Positions 1 through 13,540 of a stretch of DNA of 64,000 nucleotides are shown here, piece by piece (the stretch's first letter is position 1; the number at the start of each line of letters is the position of its first letter). A program made the translations under genes and the position numbers. Source of the stretch: Shigella phage ChubbyThor. A model generated the notes under the pieces. It was not told the origin of the DNA. It did not search any database and worked only from the letters and a program-made list of their open reading frames with translations. Where the stretch lies: the sequence record OL615013; one strand, written 5' to 3'.

Positions 1-2133
1 TTACGTTACCGGTACGCCGTTAACCAAGAATTCTTCTGTGCCGTTACTCGTGCCGTTCGCGCCGTTGCTGAAACGGTTGGTAACAGAAGAATAGAAGTTC
101 GGCTGAACCTTAGCCACTGCCGTTCCAGTGCTGCGGGAAATGCGGTGCGCGTTTACCGTACCAAAGAATTCATTTCCTCCCCACGGGAATGTGGAGTCAG
201 TGTTCACGTAGGTTCCGTACCAAATTCCGTAACCAAAACCATAAATCTGGTTTCTTCTGACGTTCACCAGTTCGCCTTGACTTGTAATAAGGATTGATGC
301 GTTGGTGGTTACGTTGTTAGTCGTGCCGCGCATTTCAACATTTTTGATGTTTACCGGAGCAGTGATGCCGTTGGCAATCTGGATGGCATAACCATCGGTG
401 TTGCGTTCCAGTTTACCGCCTTCAATCGTGATCCTACCAAAGTTTGCAGCAGATGCCTGTGGCGTTATGAAAATGTTTGGCTTCGCCGGGTTGATGCTTC
501 GATGCCCTTTGATAAGTACGTCAACAACCTGACCAGTCATCTGGATGCCGTAGCCAAGCGAGTTTATGTCAACGTTATCAGATAGTGTGATTTTCCCTGT
601 GCCCTGCGAATCCTGGATTTTGTAAGCTGCGTTGTTTGTACCACCAAAACCAGAAACCAGGTTGCCAGAAACAATGTCACCGTCAACGATGTCGCCCAGC
701 AAGATGCCAGCGCCGATGTTGTCCTGGTTTATATTCAGACCAACATCATAAATCTGGTTGTTGGTTATCATGCACGGAAGATAGGCAACAGTTCCGTCTG
801 AACCACCTGAACGATAAATACCTGTCCAGCCAGTATCACGAAGGATATTGTTATCAACTTCGATGCCGCCACCGTAATCCTGGTGAGAAACGTAACCAAT
901 CGTGATCGCGTGTCGTTTTTTGATATCTGCCTTGGCCTTCGGCGTGAATTCAGTGTTTGAATACGTCATACAGTGGTTTCCACTGATGATCACGTTTCTG
1001 GAAGCCGAAAGAGAGTTAACAGATATACTCTGGCTTGCATCTGACAAACAGGTGTTGTTTGTAATGCGTCCAGATTTTGAGTTTCCCGGCGTGCCTGTCC
1101 ACTCGACTAAATCAGCACCTGATGAAAACGTGGTTGAACCATCCCAATCATTACGCCAACCAAAGAAATCATCAATTTCGTAACGGATGACATTCATCCA
1201 CATGGCACCGGAGTTCATCCATCCTTGCGCTTCACAGCTTTGAAGTTTCAGGAGTCGCAAGCCGGGGAAGTAGAAACCATTGGAGTTATGTGATAATGTG
1301 CTGATAACGCCATCCGCAGCATGGCTAATCATCTTCTTAATTTTAATGCTTTTCGACATAGACGCAGGACAAGTTACACCGTTTTTATTAGATGTGGTGA
1401 TGATAACTTTCATCCCGTTGCCATTTACGTTGATCGTAGAACCTGTGCCTGATAATGTAACCGTGTCGCTCGAATAATAATCAAGCGGTGAGCCAATACA
1501 GTAGTCCTGTGATGCCCAGCGGTTCAATGCCACACCGTTATCGAACGCTGGATCATTGGGTACACAACCACATTCTTCTGGGATTAGTCGTCCGCGCTTG
1601 ATATTGACCCAACGACCGGAACCCGAAACAGAATTTGGCTTGATAACAGAGAACGCATCATCTGGTGTTGTTGAAGATCCATGCCACTGGAAAACGCCCC
1701 CACCGATGTCGTAACCATCCAGGAAACTGCGCACAACCACACGATCTCCCGTGCTCAGAGACTGGATCCCACTGAAATCCTTTAAGGCAGCAACAGAAGG
1801 GAATGAACCGATCAACGCCATCCCATAATCGTCTGCGAGTTCACTGCGGAAGGTAATGGTTGGTCCTTCTAACATTTTGACCGTAACCGGACCTGTGTAA
1901 GTCAACTCAGAACCAGACACAGAAATGATTTTGGCACCGTTTGGGATGCCAGACGGCTTGCCCCAAATCTTTTGCGCCGTCTCATCATAAATAACGGTCT
2001 TGTTATCCAGATTTACAGTTGTTTCAGAACTGAAGATAACGGCGCTCTCGGCCACGTTCGCCGCGCGAGCAACAGCCTTGTGATTGATGTTCCAAGACGT
2101 CGAGCCTTTCGGCTGATTGAATTGCGGATTCAT
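1..2133 (-). CDS. tailspike protein (right-handed beta-helix / pectate-lyase-like receptor-binding protein)
   Basis: 710-aa ORF, stop codon TAA at positions 1-3; Gly/Asn/Ser/Thr-rich repetitive beta-helix-like composition; N-proximal segment (VNLDNKTVIYDETAQKIWGKPSGIP...) shared with the neighbouring 974-aa protein; RBS AGGAGA upstream of ATG at 2133. Confidence 0.55.
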   Translation of the reverse strand: MNPQFNQPKGSTSWNINHKAVARAANVAESAVIFSSETTVNLDNKTVIYDETAQKIWGKPSGIPNGAKIISVSGSELTYTGPVTVKMLEGPTITFRSELADDYGMALIGSFPSVAALKDFSGIQSLSTGDRVVVRSFLDGYDIGGGVFQWHGSSTTPDDAFSVIKPNSVSGSGRWVNIKRGRLIPEECGCVPNDPAFDNGVALNRWASQDYCIGSPLDYYSSDTVTLSGTGSTINVNGNGMKVIITTSNKNGVTCPASMSKSIKIKKMISHAADGVISTLSHNSNGFYFPGLRLLKLQSCEAQGWMNSGAMWMNVIRYEIDDFFGWRNDWDGSTTFSSGADLVEWTGTPGNSKSGRITNNTCLSDASQSISVNSLSASRNVIISGNHCMTYSNTEFTPKAKADIKKRHAITIGYVSHQDYGGGIEVDNNILRDTGWTGIYRSGGSDGTVAYLPCMITNNQIYDVGLNINQDNIGAGILLGDIVDGDIVSGNLVSGFGGTNNAAYKIQDSQGTGKITLSDNVDINSLGYGIQMTGQVVDVLIKGHRSINPAKPNIFITPQASAANFGRITIEGGKLERNTDGYAIQIANGITAPVNIKNVEMRGTTNNVTTNASILITSQGELVNVRRNQIYGFGYGIWYGTYVNTDSTFPWGGNEFFGTVNAHRISRSTGTAVAKVQPNFYSSVTNRFSNGANGTSNGTEEFLVNGVPVT

Positions 2134-2156
2134 GTGAATCTCCTGTTGTTATCACG

Positions 2157-2174
2157 AAGCCCCTGAAGGGGCTT
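2157..2174 (-). terminator. hairpin between the two tailspike genes (attenuator/terminator-like)
   Basis: AAGCCCC-TGAA-GGGGCTT; no strong T-tract. Confidence 0.3.
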
Positions 2175-2214
2175 TATCGATAGAAGTTGCTAGACATCTC
2201 TAGACAGAATCGGA

Positions 2215-5139
2215 TCAATTTGACATCTGTTTCCAGTCTGAGGAGGTTAAGCCATGTGATTTCCACCAGGAACTCGCACCTGCACTCCAGACTTCCTGTC
2301 CAATAAAACGGGGGGTTACTGTAGCCACAGGCGTAGGACCAGAGACGACAACATACCCATATTTTGCTGGGCCAGTAGCATTGTTCAGTATCGTGTCTTT
2401 GGTAATTCCAGTCGCACCATTAAACCATTCTAGGTCTGTTCCGCTCGCCCCACTAATAAACTCAGGTGAAAACTTAGTGAAACTACAGGCTGCATTTACA
2501 CGTGCGCCGTTGTATGCATTATATCCACTAGCCTGGGTATTAGTCCAACGGCCACCGATCACACTGCCGCCACTACAGCTCAGGAACCAAGCTGCGTATC
2601 TTGCGAACCCTTCCACGTTCACATTAATCAGTTCAAAACCGGAAGCACCATTACACTGAATACCATCGTTGTTTGGGACACCACTCGCGATTTGTGGGTT
2701 AGCAGCATATCCAGTTAAGTTAGCGCCATTAATGTAAATACCAGTACTTGTGTTAGTGCTGAAGAAGATACCGACACCAGAACAGTTCTGAACGCTGAGG
2801 TTGCTAATACGGATACCACGAGCATAATCGAAACTTAAAGCTCGCTCTGCCGCTGAAACAGACCGATAACCAAATCCAATATCACGCAGACGTATATTGC
2901 TCATAGTGATATTGGATGGGTTCATACCCGGTGTCACAACTTCAAAACCTTCAAAGGTGATTCCGTTACCACAGTTGGTGGCTACAACATTATCCACAAC
3001 AATGTCGGCAACGTAGCGTTTGAAACCCATAGCCCCTTGAGCGCAGTCGCGCAACACCAGGTTGGACATTGCGCAGTTACGAGTACCGCCTGCCACACTT
3101 GCAGATAAGTAGATCCCAAGGTCGCGCGTGTTTTCTACATAAAGACCATTCACCCAGCAGTTTTTGGTAGTCGCAAACATCAGACCTGAGTCGGGGGCAT
3201 TCACGAGCTTACAGTTGGTGATAGAGCATCGATTCCCACCGAACGTTAAGATGTCGGCTACAGCATACAATGTGTTGCTTGCTTGGTTTCCGTCTATATA
3301 CAAATCTATTAAATGGGTATCCTGTGCATCAAAGTTCTCGACAAGATAATATGCTTTGGTCGCATCATTACAAACATTATCTGCGAATTTCAACCAGCCG
3401 CCTGCACCCTTAACAATAGTTTTAGAACCAATATGCAGATGCGTGAACACCCAAGGGTCTCCATTTTTGTTTTTGGGTGTGATGCCAATTACGCAATGTC
3501 CGGAAACACTATCCGCATAATCCAATGCTGCCTGTAATGTTTCCTGATCTGTCATTGCGCCGAACATGAAAGCGCGAACATCAATATAGTCTTCAAATTG
3601 AATTTCAAGTTGATTACCGTCCAGGCGGTCAATTAATACCACACCGTCGGCAACTTTACCTGTGTTGGGAACAACTGAATATTTGTTGTAAATACCAGAA
3701 AGAGTTTTGCTGGCCACAATACGCCCGAGCACGGTCTGGTTCGAGTTTAGCGAGTTTCGGTCTCCTAATTCCACAGCAACGCCGCCAATAGACCCAACCC
3801 CCACATTAGACTCTAATAATTCTTGGAAAACGACCAAGCTTTCAGAAGTCGGCAAGAGCAAAGAAACAACAACATTCCCTGGTGCATATGTCAGAGTGCT
3901 CCCACTCACAGATACAACAGAAGAACCTGTCGGGATACCAGAAGGTAAGCTCCAAATCTTTTGCGCCACCACATCATAGATAACAGTCTTTCCGTCCAAT
4001 TTGGTGACAGTATCTGATGACAGAATAACCTGAGAATTTGGAACGTTCATAGAACGCGCCACTTCGTTTGGTGTACGGTCGATCTGGTTGTACAGGGTTG
4101 GGTCGCCATTAATGACGACAACAACTTCATCACCAGCTTCGAGTTCGTCGGCCAGCGTGATGATCTTCGTAACGGAGTCATAAGTGAAGCCCAGACCTTT
4201 TTGCTGGCGGGATCCATCGATAAAGATCTCAGAAACATCTTCGGCATCCACGTCCAACTCGATCTCGGTTTCACCACCCGCAGCTGATCCACTATTGTAG
4301 ATCCAAGTGATAACCGTGCCGCCGCCGGAACCACCGGAGCCATTGCCCAACTGGATCGGGACGTATTGGATGACCTGCAGCTCGGAACCTGATGGGATTG
4401 ATGGACTGAAGTCCACATTGTAACCGTTCAGGGAATACTTTGATTCCAGCAGGCGTTTGCCGTCAACATACACGTCAACGATAGAAGGTTGTGTAGTCAG
4501 CGTTACCTGAGCAGTGTCTGCCGAAACGGTTTCCGTGAAGATGGTACGACTGTAAACGCGCCCCTGACCAAGGCCGACACCAGCAGTAACAATCCAACCA
4601 CGCGCGTCTCCAGACCAGGTAAAGGTCGCAGATACGCTGTCGGTGGAGAGCGTCATAGGCTCTACAGAGCCGTACATTGGGCGACCATTTGGGTCAATGG
4701 TCAGGGGATACAGGGAGAACTTTCCATACAAGTCACAGACTGTAACAGAATCACCCACACGCGTAGGGGAAGGGAACACCACCGTAGAGACGCCTGTGGA
4801 GTTGTCTACCAGATAGCCTCGCCCTTCAGTGAGCGTTGCCGTAGAGGCATGCGGAAGGGCTTCCCAGCGGATACCACCGCCACCCAGCGGCAACCATCCA
4901 CCATTTTCGTAGAAGCCCTCAAATTCGTCGGAGTCGGCATTGTAGCGAACAGAAGACGGGAGACCTGCGTCAGCATTACCCTCAGGTAAAGTCAGGACAG
5001 CATCTGGTCCATGCTCAATCGTACCCGTGTTGAGGATACCAGCCAAAGTAGACTGCTCTTCAGCCACCAGACCGAGAGGGAAAACAGGCTGTGTTGGTTT
5101 ATTAGCCATTTCAAATACCCCTAAATGTGTTCGTTTCAT
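2215..5139 (-). CDS. tailspike / tail fibre protein with N-terminal anchor module, Gly-rich linker and beta-helix domain
   Basis: 974-aa ORF; GSGGSGGG linker; internal segment (TKLDGKTVIYDVVAQKIWSLPSGIP...) homologous to N-terminus of ORF 1..2133; likely true start is the second in-frame ATG at 5109 (SD AGGGG 8 nt upstream, late-promoter-like box at 5141-5153). Confidence 0.55.
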   Translation of the reverse strand: MKRTHLGVFEMANKPTQPVFPLGLVAEEQSTLAGILNTGTIEHGPDAVLTLPEGNADAGLPSSVRYNADSDEFEGFYENGGWLPLGGGGIRWEALPHASTATLTEGRGYLVDNSTGVSTVVFPSPTRVGDSVTVCDLYGKFSLYPLTIDPNGRPMYGSVEPMTLSTDSVSATFTWSGDARGWIVTAGVGLGQGRVYSRTIFTETVSADTAQVTLTTQPSIVDVYVDGKRLLESKYSLNGYNVDFSPSIPSGSELQVIQYVPIQLGNGSGGSGGGTVITWIYNSGSAAGGETEIELDVDAEDVSEIFIDGSRQQKGLGFTYDSVTKIITLADELEAGDEVVVVINGDPTLYNQIDRTPNEVARSMNVPNSQVILSSDTVTKLDGKTVIYDVVAQKIWSLPSGIPTGSSVVSVSGSTLTYAPGNVVVSLLLPTSESLVVFQELLESNVGVGSIGGVAVELGDRNSLNSNQTVLGRIVASKTLSGIYNKYSVVPNTGKVADGVVLIDRLDGNQLEIQFEDYIDVRAFMFGAMTDQETLQAALDYADSVSGHCVIGITPKNKNGDPWVFTHLHIGSKTIVKGAGGWLKFADNVCNDATKAYYLVENFDAQDTHLIDLYIDGNQASNTLYAVADILTFGGNRCSITNCKLVNAPDSGLMFATTKNCWVNGLYVENTRDLGIYLSASVAGGTRNCAMSNLVLRDCAQGAMGFKRYVADIVVDNVVATNCGNGITFEGFEVVTPGMNPSNITMSNIRLRDIGFGYRSVSAAERALSFDYARGIRISNLSVQNCSGVGIFFSTNTSTGIYINGANLTGYAANPQIASGVPNNDGIQCNGASGFELINVNVEGFARYAAWFLSCSGGSVIGGRWTNTQASGYNAYNGARVNAACSFTKFSPEFISGASGTDLEWFNGATGITKDTILNNATGPAKYGYVVVSGPTPVATVTPRFIGQEVWSAGASSWWKSHGLTSSDWKQMSN

Positions 5140-5153
5140 CTAGGGGTATTTAG
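5113..5153 (-). promoter_or_regulatory. late-promoter-like box CTAAATACCCC with SD-sequestering inverted repeat upstream of tailspike gene
   Basis: Minus-strand CTAAATACCCCTA = plus 5141-5153; 11-bp inverted repeat plus 5113-5123 / 5141-5151; 3' arm contains AGGGG SD for ATG 5109. Confidence 0.4.
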
Positions 5154-5161
5154 TTTTCACT

Positions 5162-6373
5162 TTAGAAAGAAGCGACTAGATTGTAGTCAACGGAGCAAGC
5201 AGTCGTCGTGTTCGCATTTGTTATCGTCAAACGAAGTTTTGAAGACACTACAGAACCCGAGAATGTCACCGTACCGGAAGTGGACTTCTGAATCAACAAC
5301 TCCGACTTGATAGTCCCGTCACGGGTGATCGTCACACGATACGTATCCACGACGTTGCCTGTACCCCATTGTGCACTGATCAACACCTGACAAAGGTTCA
5401 CCAAATCGAAGTCGGGCAACGCAGAGTTCCCCGAAGCAGAGACAGTGATGCCGCTTGGGTTGGTCTTCCCGATCTTCACACGGGCAGCAATGTCGGCGTC
5501 CAGGCTTGTCATTTTGGCGTTGTAGGTCGATGTGTTGACCTTTCCAGACAACGTGGTATTGATCGTGCCGATATCACTCTGAATGCCGCTGATGGAACTG
5601 TCCAACGCCGCCATCTTCGTGTTATACGTACTGACGTTCACTTTGTTGTTCGTCAGATCTAGTATACTGGTGTCCAGGCTAGACATCTTGGAGTTGTAAG
5701 TCGACGTGTTGACCTTCGCAGCCAGAGTGGTGTTGACAGTGTTGAACTGAGACTGGATATCCAACATGTCAGCATCGTAATCGACCACTTTCAGATACGC
5801 ATTGAAGCGCGTGTCATTGAAAATGGAAGTCACAAACGCAGATGTGTCGTACTTGACAGTGTCGGTTCCACTCACCAGTAACATGGTAGTTGGCACACCA
5901 GTACCAGAGTAAGTGACCAGATTTGTGCCGTCGAAAGTGAGTTTGTTGTAGCCGCCAGATAACAACTCGATTTTCAGACCAGAGTTAACCCCGGCAGTGT
6001 CTTCACTCACGCCGTGCTTGCGCAGCATAGACAGATTGACGCCATCAGTGGAATCAACTGGCTCATCTGCGATGGTAAGTTTCTTCCCCGTAGGGATACT
6101 GACACCAGCATTGGCTCGGATTTCTGCGGCAAAAGTCTTCCGCCCGTTGATAGTTTGTTCCCCACCGTCGGTGCGAATCACCTTATTATCCAACGTGTCG
6201 TAGATGTCATCCACAGAACGCTTCAGTTCATACGTCAGATGAGCTGAAGGAGGAAACAACGGATCATCAACAGCGAAATCGTTGATAACATCGTTCTTGC
6301 TTACTTTGTCGTCAACAGAACCAAGAATTGCGTCAATCTGCTGACCTGTATATTGACTCAGGAAATCGGCCAT
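5162..6373 (-). CDS. tail fibre protein with internal sequence repeats
   Basis: 403-aa ORF; three copies of motif VN(T/V)STYNxKMxxLD; Ser/Thr/Asn-rich; sits between baseplate genes and tailspikes. Confidence 0.5.
   Translation of the reverse strand: MADFLSQYTGQQIDAILGSVDDKVSKNDVINDFAVDDPLFPPSAHLTYELKRSVDDIYDTLDNKVIRTDGGEQTINGRKTFAAEIRANAGVSIPTGKKLTIADEPVDSTDGVNLSMLRKHGVSEDTAGVNSGLKIELLSGGYNKLTFDGTNLVTYSGTGVPTTMLLVSGTDTVKYDTSAFVTSIFNDTRFNAYLKVVDYDADMLDIQSQFNTVNTTLAAKVNTSTYNSKMSSLDTSILDLTNNKVNVSTYNTKMAALDSSISGIQSDIGTINTTLSGKVNTSTYNAKMTSLDADIAARVKIGKTNPSGITVSASGNSALPDFDLVNLCQVLISAQWGTGNVVDTYRVTITRDGTIKSELLIQKSTSGTVTFSGSVVSSKLRLTITNANTTTACSVDYNLVASF
5500..5760 (-). repeat. three imperfect direct repeats inside tail-fibre gene
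   Basis: Three related DNA segments starting near 5507, 5612 and 5685, encoding VN(T/V)STYNxKMxxLD. Confidence 0.5.
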
Positions 6374-6375
6374 TT

Positions 6376-7230
6376 TTAACTCCTTGAACTTTCCAGGAAT
6401 ACGGTAAACCCAGCAGGATGGAAATGCTGACGGAAGACGCGCTCAAACACACCTTCAAAATCAGATACGTCGCCAGGAACTCTTATCACATACGTGAATT
6501 CATCATAGTAGTAATCGTCACGCATTCCTGTCGCGCCGTCACATTCAAAGTTATCGTCCAAACCACCAATTTCTTCCTTGGGGTAATACACACTCACAGG
6601 GCAACCAAAATAAATCCAGAAGAACAATTCAATCGCTTTCTTCGTCCCGCGAATGCGATAAATGTGTTTAAGCAACTTCAACCAGCGGACATGGTCCAGC
6701 GTTCGGCGTTTGGTTCCCTCGACATACACAGAGAGCGTGTCTCCGTCTGAAGTCACCAAACTGTCCGAACCAACTGGCACAAACTTCCCGAACTCCAGGA
6801 AGGTCTTATCAACCGTTCTCTGGAATCCGAAATCAGCATACCAATCGTCGATGCGTTCGTTCTTGTCTTCCATTGAGATTAATGGCCGACCGTCTACATC
6901 CAGCAAATTTTCGAAGTCTAGCGCCATCATGTTCTCAAACGTGCGCGTCAGGAACTTGTCTTCTAAGAAGTCCTTGGCCTCGGTCCCTGGTGTCTTGCGC
7001 TTCTTGATGTCAATCAGCTGCTCAATAGGAGATTGATCCGTATTTCGGTTCACCCAACCATCAGTGTCTGCCAGATACGCCAAAATCTCCTCTTCGGTGA
7101 ATCCCTGCTGGCGATACAGCCAGTTGAAGAACGTGTCCATGAACTCGATGAACACTGGGAATTCATTCTGGTAGAACAATGGGGTTTCATATTTCACCCC
7201 ATTGTGTCCGTTATTGAGATCTTTGGACAT
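6376..7230 (-). CDS. baseplate protein (wedge component, gpI-like position)
   Basis: 284-aa ORF overlapping upstream baseplate gene by 20 nt and abutting tail fibre gene; assignment by gene order only. Confidence 0.35.
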   Translation of the reverse strand: MSKDLNNGHNGVKYETPLFYQNEFPVFIEFMDTFFNWLYRQQGFTEEEILAYLADTDGWVNRNTDQSPIEQLIDIKKRKTPGTEAKDFLEDKFLTRTFENMMALDFENLLDVDGRPLISMEDKNERIDDWYADFGFQRTVDKTFLEFGKFVPVGSDSLVTSDGDTLSVYVEGTKRRTLDHVRWLKLLKHIYRIRGTKKAIELFFWIYFGCPVSVYYPKEEIGGLDDNFECDGATGMRDDYYYDEFTYVIRVPGDVSDFEGVFERVFRQHFHPAGFTVFLESSRS

Positions 7231-8992
7231 AACGCACCTCCGGCTCCACAGTTACAGCACCGATGCGAAGCACCTGGTTTTGTGTGGCCTGAATGTTCTG
7301 GTCAAGACCGTCTGGAGACACGATGATAGTCACTCCCTCGGTGTTGTAGTTGGATACTATGATGCGCTGGAGTTCAACAACGCCATTCACATAATCAACC
7401 GTTCCAACAGCTTGTACCAGATATTCCTTGGTCGTGTCTGCTGTACTCACCTTGTACATATTCAGGACACCACTGACATCGCGCATGTAGTAAGTGAAGT
7501 CGACCTCGGCCGGAAGCGGCTTAAACCCACTGATACGCACAGAACCAGATGCAATCGAGCGCCCATAATCGAACGTGAAGCTGTCTAGTACCCCATAGTC
7601 TGGCTTGAAGTGGCGCTTGTACTTCACGGAAGCGATGTTTGACGCTATCGATCTGTCCATGTCGGTGATGGCCGACTGCAACTGCTCTTTATCGAACAGT
7701 TCGTCGAATCCTTCCAGGTTCCCCAAGCCCCAGTTGACAACACCGTTCTTTACGACTGTCTTCAACTGCTCTTCGGTGTAGGCCGTGGAAGTCGGATCCC
7801 AGAACACGCGGGTGGTGACATCAACATAAGTCAGTTCAGCGTCGACAATCTTGGGTGTGATCGTACCCACATTGTACTTGTCCAAAGTCGCCACGATATC
7901 TGCCTTCTCAGCGTCGGACAGCGTCTCACCAACAGAAGGTACTACAGCAATGTAAACGTATCCAGAGTCGGGCGGAGATAGCGTGTCTCCACCATATGCT
8001 TTGGCGCGGGAGACGTTGGAGAACAGGCGCTCGGTCAACACAGCATAATCGACTTCGGCTACCGCCGCACCCTCAGCCTGATAAGCCAGCGGAGCAAGGC
8101 GCTTGATGTCTTCAATGCTCTCTGGGTCTGTACCGCCAGAAGAACGTTCTGACACCAGTTCAACATCTACAAGGTTGAAGCCCCCGATGGAAGACGCAGA
8201 GGACAAGGCAGTGATGTCATTGCCGTCTGCACCAGAGGTCTCCAGATACTGAAGGTACACGACGTTCCCGTCTTCTACTCGCTTGCAGATATAACCGTCG
8301 CCGAATTCAAACGTGTACATCCCGTCCAACCCCAGCTCAACGAAGTAGAGTTGTGCATACTGGCTCAAATCGAACGGGCTGACATATCGTGAGAAGGTAG
8401 ACCGCACGTCGGAGGTCTCAGATTCCTGCACCTGCACCACCATGTGGTTGATGTCCACGGAAGAAGACGGGATCACATAGGTAGAGATCGCGCTGCCTTC
8501 CACGTCATAGGACTTGTACAGCCAGTTGCCCTGCACGAGTTTGATGTTCTCGAACTTGTAAGAGCCGTCTACAAGAGAGGCGCTCACAGGTTGGTCAACC
8601 GTGAAGTTGTAGGATTTGCCATCCTTCGCTCCAATGAACATCGCCCGGCGGTCCATTACAATCGTATCTGGAGCCGTGCTGGCGTCATATGGAGTGACTG
8701 TGACGTTTGCGTACAGGAACGCCGCCTGGTAGTTGTGAGGGGTGTAAGACAAGAACCCCGCCGCCAGACCAACATTAGAACGCTGTTGAGCAGAGTGAAG
8801 ATGGCTTTCGCCATTCAGCATGTTCTGCATGAACCCGATAGAGTTGGCATCCGAGGCCAAGATACGCACGATTGCACTGAGACCAGAACCTTCAAAGTCA
8901 TAATCCTTGAAAGTTGGATCAGCTTTCATGCGCTTCTTGATAAGATACTCGAAAGCCCTGACATCGAGTGAAGGAACTGTTTGTGTGGCCAT
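7211..8992 (-). CDS. baseplate wedge protein (Baseplate J / T4 gp6-like)
   Basis: ORF track 7211..9007 (598 aa); most plausible start is ATG at 8992 preceded by GGAGA SD; size and position upstream of tail fibre genes; late-promoter-like box upstream. Confidence 0.4.
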   Translation of the reverse strand: MATQTVPSLDVRAFEYLIKKRMKADPTFKDYDFEGSGLSAIVRILASDANSIGFMQNMLNGESHLHSAQQRSNVGLAAGFLSYTPHNYQAAFLYANVTVTPYDASTAPDTIVMDRRAMFIGAKDGKSYNFTVDQPVSASLVDGSYKFENIKLVQGNWLYKSYDVEGSAISTYVIPSSSVDINHMVVQVQESETSDVRSTFSRYVSPFDLSQYAQLYFVELGLDGMYTFEFGDGYICKRVEDGNVVYLQYLETSGADGNDITALSSASSIGGFNLVDVELVSERSSGGTDPESIEDIKRLAPLAYQAEGAAVAEVDYAVLTERLFSNVSRAKAYGGDTLSPPDSGYVYIAVVPSVGETLSDAEKADIVATLDKYNVGTITPKIVDAELTYVDVTTRVFWDPTSTAYTEEQLKTVVKNGVVNWGLGNLEGFDELFDKEQLQSAITDMDRSIASNIASVKYKRHFKPDYGVLDSFTFDYGRSIASGSVRISGFKPLPAEVDFTYYMRDVSGVLNMYKVSTADTTKEYLVQAVGTVDYVNGVVELQRIIVSNYNTEGVTIIVSPDGLDQNIQATQNQVLRIGAVTVEPEVRYVQRSQ

Positions 8993-8995
8993 GTT

Positions 8996-9039
8996 TATCT
9001 CCATCACCTGAACTTGAATATGGTGTTGGAGATATTTAG
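8996..9039 (-). promoter_or_regulatory. late-promoter-like box CTAAATAtCtcc with SD-sequestering inverted repeat upstream of baseplate gene
   Basis: Minus-strand CTAAATA = plus 9033-9039; 7-bp inverted repeat plus 8996-9002 / 9028-9034; 3' arm is the GGAGATA SD of ATG 8992. Confidence 0.4.
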
Positions 9040-9341
9040 TGGGATGGGATTGAAACTTCCTCGCGCGTTATTTTATTATACTATCACTCGCTTCACTGCG
9101 TTCCGCTCGGATAACACCGCCTTGACAGGCAGTCCCATTCCACAGCCATGGAGGCTGCTTTTCGTTGTTCGTTAACACTCACAACTCAAAGGGCACAGCG
9201 ATACGATACAGTCTCTGAGTGGTGTAGAAAAGTAGTTTTTGCCTATTAATAAACCGCGCTCCTATTCGTTGGCCTTTAATTCAATAACACCTTCACCAAT
9301 ATAATAGTGCGGTCAATTAACCATATATTAAGGAACCTCTC

Positions 9342-9914
9342 ATGCACATCAACACTGCTATCACGAAACACATCATTCCTTTGTTAGAGAAATATGAAGG
9401 GAAGAAATCAAAGGATATTTCGTTTGAAGATATATCCGCCGAAGTGAAGCGCTTGACACGTAAAGAAGTCAATTTCCGCCGTGTCCCCCCATCTGCAGTA
9501 GATCGGGCAAAGTCAGATTTGAACACGGCTTCCACTTTCTCCTTTAATATCGATGCCACGGCGACATTGGTATCCGAATTAACGCAGTCGTCACAAGCCC
9601 GTCGCGATCGCTTCCGCCATTTATGTGTGGCCAACGACTATCCTAGCACCCGTGTCGGCATCAAGCTTGAAGCAATCCGCTCCGAGGTGTGCTTCACAGT
9701 GAACTACATCCTGGAGCCTGAAACCAGCAACATTTATTTCGCAGCCATCATCGGCTTCTATGGTACATCCATTAATGGTTGGGCTGAGCGCGTTGAATTA
9801 AAAGAGACTCTGAACAAACACAGCATCCCGTCCACCCATTATATGTCGCTGGCCGCCGCTCGCGAATATGTGTATCTGCTCGAGCGTGATGTGAAGTTAA
9901 AAGTGGTAAAATAA
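9342..9914 (+). CDS. hypothetical protein
   Basis: 190-aa ORF starting with ATG, first plus-strand gene after divergent intergenic region 9008-9341. Confidence 0.5.
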   Translation: MHINTAITKHIIPLLEKYEGKKSKDISFEDISAEVKRLTRKEVNFRRVPPSAVDRAKSDLNTASTFSFNIDATATLVSELTQSSQARRDRFRHLCVANDYPSTRVGIKLEAIRSEVCFTVNYILEPETSNIYFAAIIGFYGTSINGWAERVELKETLNKHSIPSTHYMSLAAAREYVYLLERDVKLKVVK

Positions 9915-12395: not shown

Positions 12396-12471
12396 GACGA
12401 TGTAGTTCAGTCGGTAGAACGGTGGACTGTTAATCCATATGTCACAGGTTCAAGTCCTGTCATCGTCGCCA
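12396..12471 (+). tRNA. tRNA-Asn (anticodon GTT)
   Basis: Hand-folded cloverleaf: acceptor GACGATG/CATCGTC, D-arm GTTC/GAAC, anticodon stem GTGGA/TCCAT with loop CTGTTAA, T-arm ACAGG-TTCAAGT-CCTGT, discriminator G, CCA encoded. Confidence 0.8.
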
Positions 12472-12727
12472 GACAATGGGTGTGAACGAAAGTGAATAGG
12501 CACGAAGTACGCGACCGACAAGCTCCAAGCCTCTGTCCAATAGCCGAACGGAATCTGAAGACGACGATAGTAACGCCCACCAAATTCAGAGTGTAGAGGC
12601 TACAGTAGTGCGCACCTCACGGGTTGCTACACCGGACACTCTGATACAAATCTGCCGCTGCGTGGATTAGCTGAGGAAGGATGGCCGATGTCCTCGAGTG
12701 TGGCCCAGCACGCAGCGGTAGACCAAA

Positions 12728-12811
12728 TGTGAGTGTGGCAGAGCGGTCGAATGCAGGAGACTGTAAATCTCCCCGTAACAGCGCGGTGGTTCGAATCCAT
12801 CCACTCACACC
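12728..12811 (+). tRNA. tRNA-Tyr (anticodon GTA), type II with long variable arm
   Basis: Acceptor GTGAGTG/CACTCAC, anticodon stem GGAGA/TCTCC loop CTGTAAA, T-arm GGTGG-TTCGAAT-CCATC, discriminator A, CCA encoded. Confidence 0.75.
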
Positions 12812-12952
12812 AAACACAGTAAGCGTTGCAGCCACGCTGTGTATCTGACCAGAAGGCACTGGTCGCCAGTTAACCAATCGGCGCTGAGAAGCGCGGGGAG
12901 TTGGGCTACGGCAGATCAAATGCTCAATCGGGTGTGAAGCCCGTTCAAATTT

Positions 12953-13036
12953 CGCGGGAGCCATAGGGGTTGGACAGTAGCCGACTGATCATCGGCGACG
13001 ATCACTGGACAGGTTCGAATCCTGATCTCCCGCTCC
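12953..13036 (+). tRNA. tRNA-like element, possibly tRNA-Ile (anticodon GAT) with irregular D/T arms
   Basis: Perfect 7-bp acceptor GCGGGAG/CTCCCGC + CCA; stem-loop GCCGA-CTGATCA-TCGGC fits an anticodon arm; TTCGAAT T-loop present but T-stem has a mismatch/extra nt; could not fold a canonical D-arm by hand. Confidence 0.4.
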
Positions 13037-13040
13037 AAAT

Positions 13041-13129
13041 TGGAAGGTTGCCCGAGAGGTTTAAGGGACTCGACTGCTAATCGAGTGGGGCTTTTAGCCC
13101 CCGAAGGTTCGAATCCTTCACCTTCCGCC
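13041..13129 (+). tRNA. tRNA-Ser (anticodon GCT), type II
   Basis: Acceptor GGAAGGT/ACCTTCC, 3-bp D-stem CCC/GGG, anticodon stem CTCGA/TCGAG loop CTGCTAA, variable-arm hairpin GGGGC/GCCCC, T-arm GAAGG-TTCGAAT-CCTTC, discriminator G, CCA encoded. Confidence 0.8.
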
Positions 13130-13540
13130 AAATTTGCGATCATCGCGGAAATCCCAGACGCGAGTGGAGGCCAGGGTGAAGACTGGCACATGGGCACTGA
13201 CGGCAAAGGTGTTCTACCTCCTGGAATTGGGTGGCCTGAATGGTAGGGAAAGCAGCCAAGCGTTGTGGGTTCAACTCCCACTCACCCAGCCCCAGATGGA
13301 ATGGGTCCATCATCGCAAATCATATTTTGGGCGTGACTTCCTGAAGAGTTAGAAGGTGTGCATGCCGACTCTCTCGTAATCGGGTGTTTAGGAAGTTAAG
13401 AAAATCGCGGCGAGGATAGTGAAATGCAAATAGCTTTCTCTACGCCGACGACTTCAGGTTCGATTCCTGACGCGCTCTCCCATAAGGCAGTACCAGTGCG
13501 AAGTGTGTAGTCTTTTCAACCCATCCCCATCGATGTGGTA

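Follow-up and report, generated by a model that had tools for sequence, protein, structure and literature searches.

Two tailspike genes at positions 1-5109

We analysed a 64,000-nucleotide (nt) stretch of Shigella phage ChubbyThor (OL615013), here called the window, and in it two minus-strand tailspike genes at positions 1-5109. ChubbyThor is a published Agtrevirus with Shigella boydii as isolation host. The original prediction, made from the DNA letters alone, had described the encoded proteins, of 710 and 974 amino acids (aa), as modular tailspikes that have one conserved segment in common and diverge downstream in their beta-helix domains, the longer protein being an anchor spike. The locus comprises:

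1-2133, minus strand: gene at the tsp3 position, from the list of open reading frames (ORFs), encoding a 710-aa tailspike; stop codon at 1-3
2134-2214, minus strand: spacer between tsp4 and tsp3 with a GC-rich hairpin (2157-2174) and the tsp3 Shine-Dalgarno sequence, kept in the phages MK-13, Ag3 and SKML-39
2215-5109, minus strand: tsp4, encoding a 964-aa predicted anchor/hub tailspike with 99% identity to gene product (gp) 201 of MK-13

In the numbering of the ChubbyThor record, the 710-aa protein is gp1 (100% identity, annotated as 'putative head binding protein') and the longer protein gp2; the remaining two spike genes, gp207 and gp208, are located at the far end of the record, outside the window. 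At the DNA level, positions 2098-9000 are 98% identical to Agtrevirus MK-13 and, over the matching pieces, 96-97% identical to Ag3 and SKML-39 (Agtrevirus, Ackermannviridae). As in MK-13 and Ag3, tsp4 is the first gene of the tailspike (tsp) cluster and lies directly downstream of wedge and fibre genes. Positions 1-5109 are the first two tsp-cluster genes of an Agtrevirus.

The tsp3 start codon is preceded by AGGAG 7 nt upstream of the ATG. For the longer protein, the ORF 2215-5139 gives 974 aa if read from its first ATG. Its true start, however, is most likely ATG 5109 (MANKPTQP..., 964 aa), because the alignment with the crystal structure (PDB) begins there, because MK-13 gp201 is annotated with 964 aa and all database homologues begin at this residue, and because a strong hairpin holds the upstream ATG 5139 in its loop. 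This agrees with the end coordinate of 5109 in the original prediction. Residue numbers of this protein, TSP4, refer to the 964-aa form unless the 974-aa ORF is named.

A shared D1/TD1 head domain

BLASTP aligned residues 21-109 of the 710-aa protein with residues 360-452 of the 974-aa ORF (350-442 in the 964-aa numbering) at 52% identity over 94 aa (E=4e-15), and the core of this segment (21-88 against 350-418) reaches 61% identity over 69 aa. The motif that had first drawn attention to the pair is present in both proteins (LDNKTVIYDETAQKIWGKPSGIPNG..SVSGSELTYT and LDGKTVIYDVVAQKIWSLPSGIPTG..SVSGSTLTYA). That this likeness reflects chance or low complexity, the outcome named beforehand as fatal to the proposal, is vanishingly improbable and is ruled out by BLASTP, by 1000 shuffles (Smith-Waterman score 208 against 37 +/- 5.3, maximum 60; z=32) and by a profile search that recovered the same domain in 255 cluster representatives, next to its presence in solved structures; the two segments use 16-18 residue types at an entropy of 3.6-3.9 bits and are not of low complexity.

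Past the shared segment, BLASTP of the two proteins found no significant similarity (next high-scoring segment pair at E=1.7). Both downstream bodies are predicted beta-helices, unrelated in sequence, just as had been proposed. The DNA of the two segments matches over a single patch of 59 nt, which is 81% identical; the longest exact word is 16 nt. Of the checks suggested at the outset, structure prediction with AlphaFold 2 (AF2) gave beta-helix tailspikes that have the same secondary-structure order, a helix followed by six strands, in the shared segment of both models, and comparison with tailspike sets of related phages recovered the segment in homologues of the TSP3 and TSP4 types. The segment is a true homologous domain, known from the literature on Ackermannviridae tailspikes as the head domain D1/TD1.

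The longer protein resembles the TSP4 hub of CBA120

Residues 1-338 of the longer protein match the TSP4-N structures of phage CBA120 (7REJ/7RFO) with E=3e-150 in phmmer. In this alignment, residues 11-348 of the 974-aa ORF correspond to residues 1-336 of the chain, and all three linkers (GGGG, GLGQGRVYSR and Gly-rich) are in place. The domain limits given here were transferred by alignment from PMC8825819 (Chao et al. 2022):

4885-5109, minus strand: anchor domain (AD), aa 1-75, from the 7REJ alignment; putative baseplate anchor
aa 76-79, minus strand: GGGG linker, from the 7REJ alignment
4576-4872, minus strand: XD1, aa 80-178, a T4 gp10/gp9-like domain
aa 179-188, minus strand: linker GLGQGRVYSR, identical to the CBA120 linker
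4363-4545, minus strand: XD2, aa 189-249, from the alignment to CBA120 TSP4-N
4312-4362, minus strand: Gly-rich XD2-XD3 linker, aa 250-266, holding GSGGSGGG (aa 257-264, nt 4318-4341)
4099-4311, minus strand: XD3, aa 267-337, net charge -13 per chain
3850-4098, minus strand: XD3-D1 linker TLYNQIDRTPNE (aa 338-349) and D1/TD1 head (aa 350-420), from BLASTP, the shuffle test and the model
2218-3846, minus strand: neck, D3'-like module, capping helices, beta-helix and C-terminal module, from PF13229, AF2 and Foldseek

Judged by its sequence, the longer protein is a TSP4 homologue and a predicted baseplate-anchored hub spike, in keeping with the anchor role assigned to it before. The extra N-terminal module is there as well, but measures 349 aa rather than about 370. 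The GSGGSGGG linker exists, yet it lies inside the N-terminal part, between XD2 and XD3, and not at the junction with the shared segment; it is the counterpart of the disordered XD2-XD3 linker Thr250-Thr264 of CBA120. In being acidic, XD3 likewise resembles its counterpart in CBA120, a platform domain.

The AF2 model of residues 331-964 (predicted local distance difference test score, pLDDT, of 82) shows D1 at 350-420, neck helices at 422-440, an alpha/beta module at 446-504, capping helices, a beta-helix at 539-857 and a C-terminal module. Its best Foldseek match was full-length CBA120 TSP2 (6W4Q, E=4e-16), followed by TSP3, TSP4dN and the HK620 and Sf6 tailspikes. Pfam recognised PF13229 alone (residues 626-730 of the 974-aa ORF, 616-720 in the 964-aa numbering). 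The head thus consists of a single module, D1, after XD3 and before the beta-helix body.

CBA120 TSP4 (ORF213; 7REJ, 7RFO, 7RFV) has the same AD-XD1-XD2-Gly linker-XD3 order, with D1 after XD3 and a D3'-like module before the beta-helix, and its gene, like tsp4 of the window, adjoins baseplate wedge genes. It differs in that its head has D2/TD2, whereas TSP4 of the window has D1 only and no PF18668 match; the bodies are unrelated. The TSP4 of Kuttervirus SFP10 is 60% identical to that of the window over aa 1-434, with no identity beyond. In Agtrevirus, the counterparts of the window proteins are MK-13 gp201 and gp200, Ag3 orf213 and orf212, and EspM4VN gp211.

The 710-aa protein is a TSP3-position spike

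The 710-aa protein is built as follows:

2083-2133, minus strand: N-terminal peptide MNPQFNQPKGSTSWNIN, aa 1-17, the sole part common with TSP3 of Ag3, MK-13 and SKML-39
1870-2082, minus strand: D1/TD1 head, aa 18-88, from BLASTP, shuffles, HMMER, PHROG and AF2
1594-1857, minus strand: neck helices (aa 93-107) and D3'-like alpha/beta module (aa 110-180), from HMMER and AF2
4-1581, minus strand: predicted receptor-binding body with capping helices, right-handed beta-helix (aa 211-645) and C-terminal module, from AF2 and Foldseek

We assign this protein to the TSP3 position because the place of its gene, the spacer and its first 12 residues match tsp3 and because it has no XD2-XD3. The DNA match of the spacer to MK-13, Ag3 and SKML-39 runs into the gene as far as 2098-2105 (2098 for MK-13), and the peptide MNPQFNQPKGST is identical in 12 of 12 residues to TSP3 of MK-13, Ag3, SKML-39 and EspM4VN. 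With EspM4VN TSP3, the identity extends over the first 119 aa (73%), D1 included. D1 begins as early as residue 18, and XD domains (XD2/XD3) are absent. PHROG profiles matched the first 80-98 residues at positions 1-80 of TSP1/3-type, 350-429 of TSP4-type and 160-245 of TSP2-type proteins. In HMMER, residues 3-75 matched CBA120 TSP3 (5W6F/6NW9, residues 3-74; E=2e-8). The AF2 model (pLDDT 87) starts with the disordered N-terminal peptide, followed by D1.

A head of D1 and D2/TD2 as in CBA120 TSP3 was not found: in the AF2 model, D1 runs straight into the neck helices and the D3'-like module, and a Pfam search of the protein, in a copy without its precomputed label PF27114, gave no match, PF18668 included. 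In the literature, TSP3 is defined by position and by the lack of XD domains, D2 not being required, and the protein is a TSP3 head variant. CBA120 TSP3 (ORF212; 5W6F, 6NW9) resembles it in the position of the gene after tsp4, in the lack of XD domains and in a peptide of the form M-x-x-QFNQP(K/R)GS that precedes D1. It differs in having D2 where the 710-aa protein has a TSP2-like neck and D3', and the beta-helices are unrelated. CBA120 TSP2 (ORF211; 6W4Q; PMC7506556), on the other hand, has the D1-only head, short neck, D3' and beta-helix of both window proteins and is the best match for both by sequence as well as by fold. The arrangement of a D1-only head and a D3'-like module in the window proteins is thus that of TSP2, unlike the D1-D2 heads of CBA120 TSP3 and TSP4. 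In CBA120 TSP2, however, D1 is preceded by a 168-aa XD2-XD3 region, which the 710-aa protein lacks and in place of which TSP4 of the window has AD-XD1-XD2-XD3.

This similarity bears on an earlier typing, in which gp1 was classified as TSP2-1 (after SA157lw gp3, 35.8% over 26%) and no TSP3 was recognised in the phage (PMC10892097). The TSP2 label is favoured by the match to CBA120 TSP2, which leads by sequence (HMMER, residues 6-191, E=6e-15) and by fold (Foldseek, E ~1e-16, with TSP4/TSP4dN, TSP3 and TSP1 as further matches), and by the failure of a search with Ag3 TSP3 in that study to find a match in the phage. Yet the HMMER match is confined to D1-neck-D3' (residues 160-342 of 6W4Q), and the XD2-XD3 region of about 170 aa that defines TSP2 is missing, while the gene follows tsp4 directly, with the first 12 codons and the spacer kept as in tsp3 of MK-13, Ag3 and SKML-39. 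There is no separate tsp3 between the 710-aa gene and tsp4, and the 73% identity to EspM4VN TSP3 likewise speaks against the label. That TBLASTN found nothing with Ag3 TSP3 is explained by this query, which is without D1 and has only 17 aa in common with gp1. A TSP2 identity of gp1, leaving the phage without TSP3, is extremely unlikely. For gp2, the label TSP4-14 (Ag3) given in PMC10892097 is valid for the N-terminal 458 residues only. A small gain of our analysis is therefore a corrected typing, with gp1 as TSP3-position spike and the gp2 body of MK-13 type rather than Ag3 TSP4-14.

Window position 1 coincides exactly with the tsp3 stop codon; with the other two spike genes at its far end, the record looks as if it had been opened within the tsp cluster. 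SKML-39 shares this cut, its record stopping about 220 bp beyond the tsp3 stop codon, and that of P46FS4 breaks off within tsp4. This split of the tsp cluster over the ends of published Agtrevirus records helps to explain the inconsistent TSP typing in the literature.

D1 is an old module with position-specific versions

In the literature, TD1 has been delimited to residues 1-96 of TSP1 and TSP3, 157-257 of TSP2 and 344-421 of TSP4 (PMC8432352). It is reported to dock TSP1 and TSP3 onto XD3 of TSP4 and TSP2 (PMC11414711, PMC8825819), and an exchange of receptor-binding modules has been proposed to take place at its distal end (PMC8432352). For some Agtrevirus phages, the same patch of identity has been noted in tsp1, tsp3 and tsp4 (PMC10791037). 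What AD, XD and TD1 do, and that TD1 serves as a recombination site, has thus been published before (PMC8825819, PMC8432352, PMC11414711, PMC10791037, PMC7506556). The feature analysed here is a described part of a well-studied system in a published phage and adds nothing to the published model.

We built a profile from the two window copies of D1 and searched 1.84 billion proteins (E<=1e-3), which yielded the 255 cluster representatives mentioned above. Among the best 150 of the 255, D1 starts at discrete offsets: 283-314 (n=76), 163-177 (n=27), 343-347 (n=25) and 16-28 (n=12). The module therefore sits in few fixed architectures. In the commonest class (offset about 305), D1 follows two XD3-like repeats, a layout that may resemble that of G7C gp66 as described in PMC8825819.

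In a tree from an alignment of 47 D1 sequences, the domain clusters by position (TSP3-, TSP4-, TSP2- and TSP1-type) and not by genome. The two window copies fall into separate clades, the N-terminal one (TSP3-type) and the one at offset ~345 (TSP4-type), each together with orthologues of other phages; the TSP2- and TSP1-types stand apart from both. From these separate clades we conclude that the window copies are old position-specific paralogues and not the product of a recent duplication.

A recent tsp3/tsp4 duplication or gene conversion within the genome would nevertheless have precedents, as Sorensen 2021 reports whole receptor-binding modules common to TSP1/TSP3 and TSP4 in Kuttervirus, and in a metagenomic TSP4 (P0051), D1 carries TSP3-like residues and the D3' region is 45% identical to TSP3 of the window. 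For the window pair, such an event is most improbable, given 61% identity between the D1 proteins, DNA identity confined to the 59-nt patch and the placement of each copy in its own clade.

Junctions between docking parts and receptor-binding bodies

Homologues of both window proteins break off at a few recurrent points. TSP3-type homologues have aa 1-88/89, 1-108/110 or 1-176/194 in common with the 710-aa protein and then continue into unrelated bodies, while TSP4-type homologues are common over aa 1-418, 1-425 or 1-432 and then differ. The converse holds for the bodies. Homologues of the 710-aa body (50-61% identity) begin at aa 94-107 and carry foreign N-termini, which are P22-type PF09008 modules (in E. 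coli and E. fergusonii prophages), T7-type PF03906 modules (Kayfunavirus) or PF18668 modules; in the 'phages' collection, no homologue of this body was found except in two Kayfunavirus podophages (54% identity). Homologues of the TSP4 body (57-83% identity) stand behind other N-termini in 40-75 kb contigs and in E. coli prophages. The TSP4 body of the window is of MK-13 type (99%), and Ag3 TSP4 is common with it only over aa 1-458.

The distal end of D1 and the neck are hence the junctions at which receptor-binding cassettes are swapped with other phages and prophages. The boundary between docking part and cassette falls at aa 88-107 in this TSP3 and at aa 418-432 in this TSP4, which is useful for host-range engineering. 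With regard to enzyme specificity, we found no close characterised homologue of either body. Catalytic residues vary between tailspike families. A transfer of O-antigen specificity from the E. coli prophage homologues is unjustified at 50-65% identity and was rejected.

The N-terminal peptide is kept in all TSP3s examined, D1 in some of them

D1 is present in TSP3 of the window phage, of EspM4VN and of 12 metagenomic TSP3-type cluster representatives. In TSP3 of MK-13 (L001:6934-9036), Ag3 (L002:7014-9035) and SKML-39 (L004:220-2145), it is precisely missing in comparison with window positions 1870-2133. In these D1-less proteins the 17-aa peptide MNPQFNQPKGSTAKEINKN runs straight into a PF18668-like TD2 (RELWRR..GSFEDGAT..YTWGGSLPK), the fusion having the form MNPQFNQPKGST..IN followed by the TD2-like module. 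As a metagenomic TSP3 (P0045) contains the peptide, D1 and TD2, the Ag3 form looks like a clean deletion of D1.

Across all TSP3s examined, the peptide MNPQFNQPKGS is the one part that is always retained; related forms of it are also carried by TSP1 and by other D1 heads with a free N-terminus. In addition, the N-terminus of TSP3 (NPQFNQPKGS..., 2083-2133) resembles the XD3-D1 linker of TSP4, DPTLYNQIDRTPNE (4063-4104; DPTLYNQ...), and XD3-D1 linkers of the same likeness are found in the Kuttervirus SFP10 (L005), namely TPNIYNQIDYTLRE in TSP4 and VKQPNISPAFDRSIQE (KQPNIS...) in TSP2. This resemblance is compatible with TSP4 and TSP2 having arisen when a gp10-like adaptor became fused to a spike with a D1 head. 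According to a 2024 review, the mode of TSP3 binding to TSP2 is still unclear. That the peptide rather than D1 is the main determinant for docking TSP3 onto the hub is a tentative idea, which we consider possible but doubtful. The finding that D1 occurs in some Agtrevirus TSP3s only is a small gain that bears on this docking question.

TSP2 of MK-13 (L001:4076-6856) and Ag3 (L002:4552-6813) has no recognisable D1 after XD3 (..VWVVAEMSVKQNYLALSSEGGASLVG..), unlike SFP10 TSP2. In Agtrevirus, then, not every one of the four spikes has D1.

Proposed assembly of the spike complex

Our overall interpretation, to which we assign a probability of about 0.9, is that the two genes encode a TSP4 hub and a TSP3-position spike, and that their shared D1 is an old module with position-specific versions. 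The homology, the domain order, the predicted folds and the positions of the junctions were observed directly. We infer the partner of each domain, the assembly of trimers and the enzymatic activity from the work on CBA120.

According to this model, TSP4 trimers would anchor to the baseplate by AD, and the N-terminal 337 residues would fix the spike complex and provide gp10-like trimeric platforms for the partner spikes. XD2 of TSP4 would pair with XD2 of TSP2, and the XD3 platforms would receive the D1 heads of TSP1 and TSP3. In TSP4, D1 follows XD3 in cis, whereas the same domain stands at the free end of TSP3. TSP3 would join only once the TSP2:TSP4 complex has formed, its peptide and D1 head docking in trans onto an XD3 platform of this complex. 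The remainder of TSP4 (D1, neck, D3'-like module and beta-helix) may be an ordinary polysaccharide-binding or -cleaving tailspike, and each beta-helix might bind and cleave a different polysaccharide, with the TSP3 body adding a second specificity. The principle recurs in G7C gp66/gp63.1 and T4 gp10, where XD2/XD3 trimers serve as platforms on which a second spike or fibre is mounted by its N-terminal head; in gp63.1 this head has the D1 fold. G7C differs in having two branches and another anchor, and T4 gp10 lacks a receptor-binding body.

The original prediction had envisaged an anchor spike with one partner. The anchor role stands, but by the CBA120 model TSP4 would be the hub to which as many as three other spikes attach, and TSP3 docks by its head onto a pre-formed TSP2:TSP4 complex, not simply onto TSP4 (PMC8825819, PMC11414711). 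Branched four-spike complexes of this kind underlie the multi-host range of Ackermannviridae and offer a platform for host-range engineering.

Several observations weigh against our interpretation. The genes tsp2 and tsp1 lie outside the window, and an XD3-bearing TSP2 in ChubbyThor is putative. Neither window head has D2/TD2 (PF18668), unlike CBA120 TSP3 and TSP4, so that the docking geometry may differ. The lack of D1 in TSP3 of Ag3, MK-13 and SKML-39 puts its role as an essential docking element in question. The 59-nt patch at 81% is too little for efficient homologous exchange between tsp3 and tsp4 within the genome. Finally, the D1 region of the TSP4 model is poorly confident (pLDDT 52-67).

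The alternative that fares best concerns the docking site: the TSP3 head may dock directly on XD3 of TSP4 and not on that of TSP2. Binding of CBA120 TSP3 needs XD3 of TSP4, on which D1 of TSP1 binds (PMC8825819), and in the window the charges of TSP4 XD3 (-13) and of the TSP3 head (+2) would suit such a contact; moreover, the TSP2 region after XD3 in Ag3 and MK-13 differs from the Kuttervirus version. However, CBA120 TSP3 fails to bind TSP4-N without TSP2 (PMC8825819), and ChubbyThor TSP1, reported to be of Ag3 type, would compete for the same platform. On balance, direct docking on TSP4 appears unlikely, and we prefer docking onto an XD3 platform of the TSP2:TSP4 complex.

Neighbouring genes and further elements

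The tailspike genes belong to a same-strand run of five genes in 1-9007, which continues upstream as follows:

5113-5151, minus strand: hairpin with a perfect 16-bp stem between the stop codon of the 403-aa fibre gene and the tsp4 start
5162-6373, minus strand: ORF encoding a 403-aa fibre-like protein
6376-7230, minus strand: PF23786 baseplate wedge gene (Pfam E=3e-148)
7211-9007, minus strand: ORF, gp6-like wedge gene

MK-13 has the same order of gp6-like wedge, wedge, fibre, tsp4 and tsp3 genes. The hairpin at 5113-5151 is strong (-22.2 kcal/mol, z=-6.6 against shuffles) and holds the upstream ATG 5139 in its loop and GGGG in its 3' arm, 9-12 nt upstream of ATG 5109. Nearly the same hairpin occurs in Kuttervirus SFP10 (L005:1664-1700). 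It could be a terminator, an attenuator or a mask over the tsp4 ribosome-binding site. The folding energy of the spacer hairpin at 2157-2174, by comparison, was no better than that of shuffles (z=-1.6), and scans of 1-9400 for promoter and terminator consensus sequences gave no excess over shuffles.

The 403-aa protein contains three copies of a motif of the VNTSTYNxKMxxLDxxI type in a predicted coiled, fibre-like stretch. Its sole family is PHROG 3838 (E=6e-204), of unknown function, besides weak matches to NPV P10 and BppL_N, and the gene is kept between the wedge genes and tsp4 in all relatives.

Further along the window, on the plus strand, three tRNA genes were found at 12396-13130. The additional upstream tRNA-Ser(TGA) annotated in Ag3 was not found in the window by ARAGORN; the three genes, Asn-GTT, Tyr-GTA and Ser-GCT, stand in the same order in Ag3.

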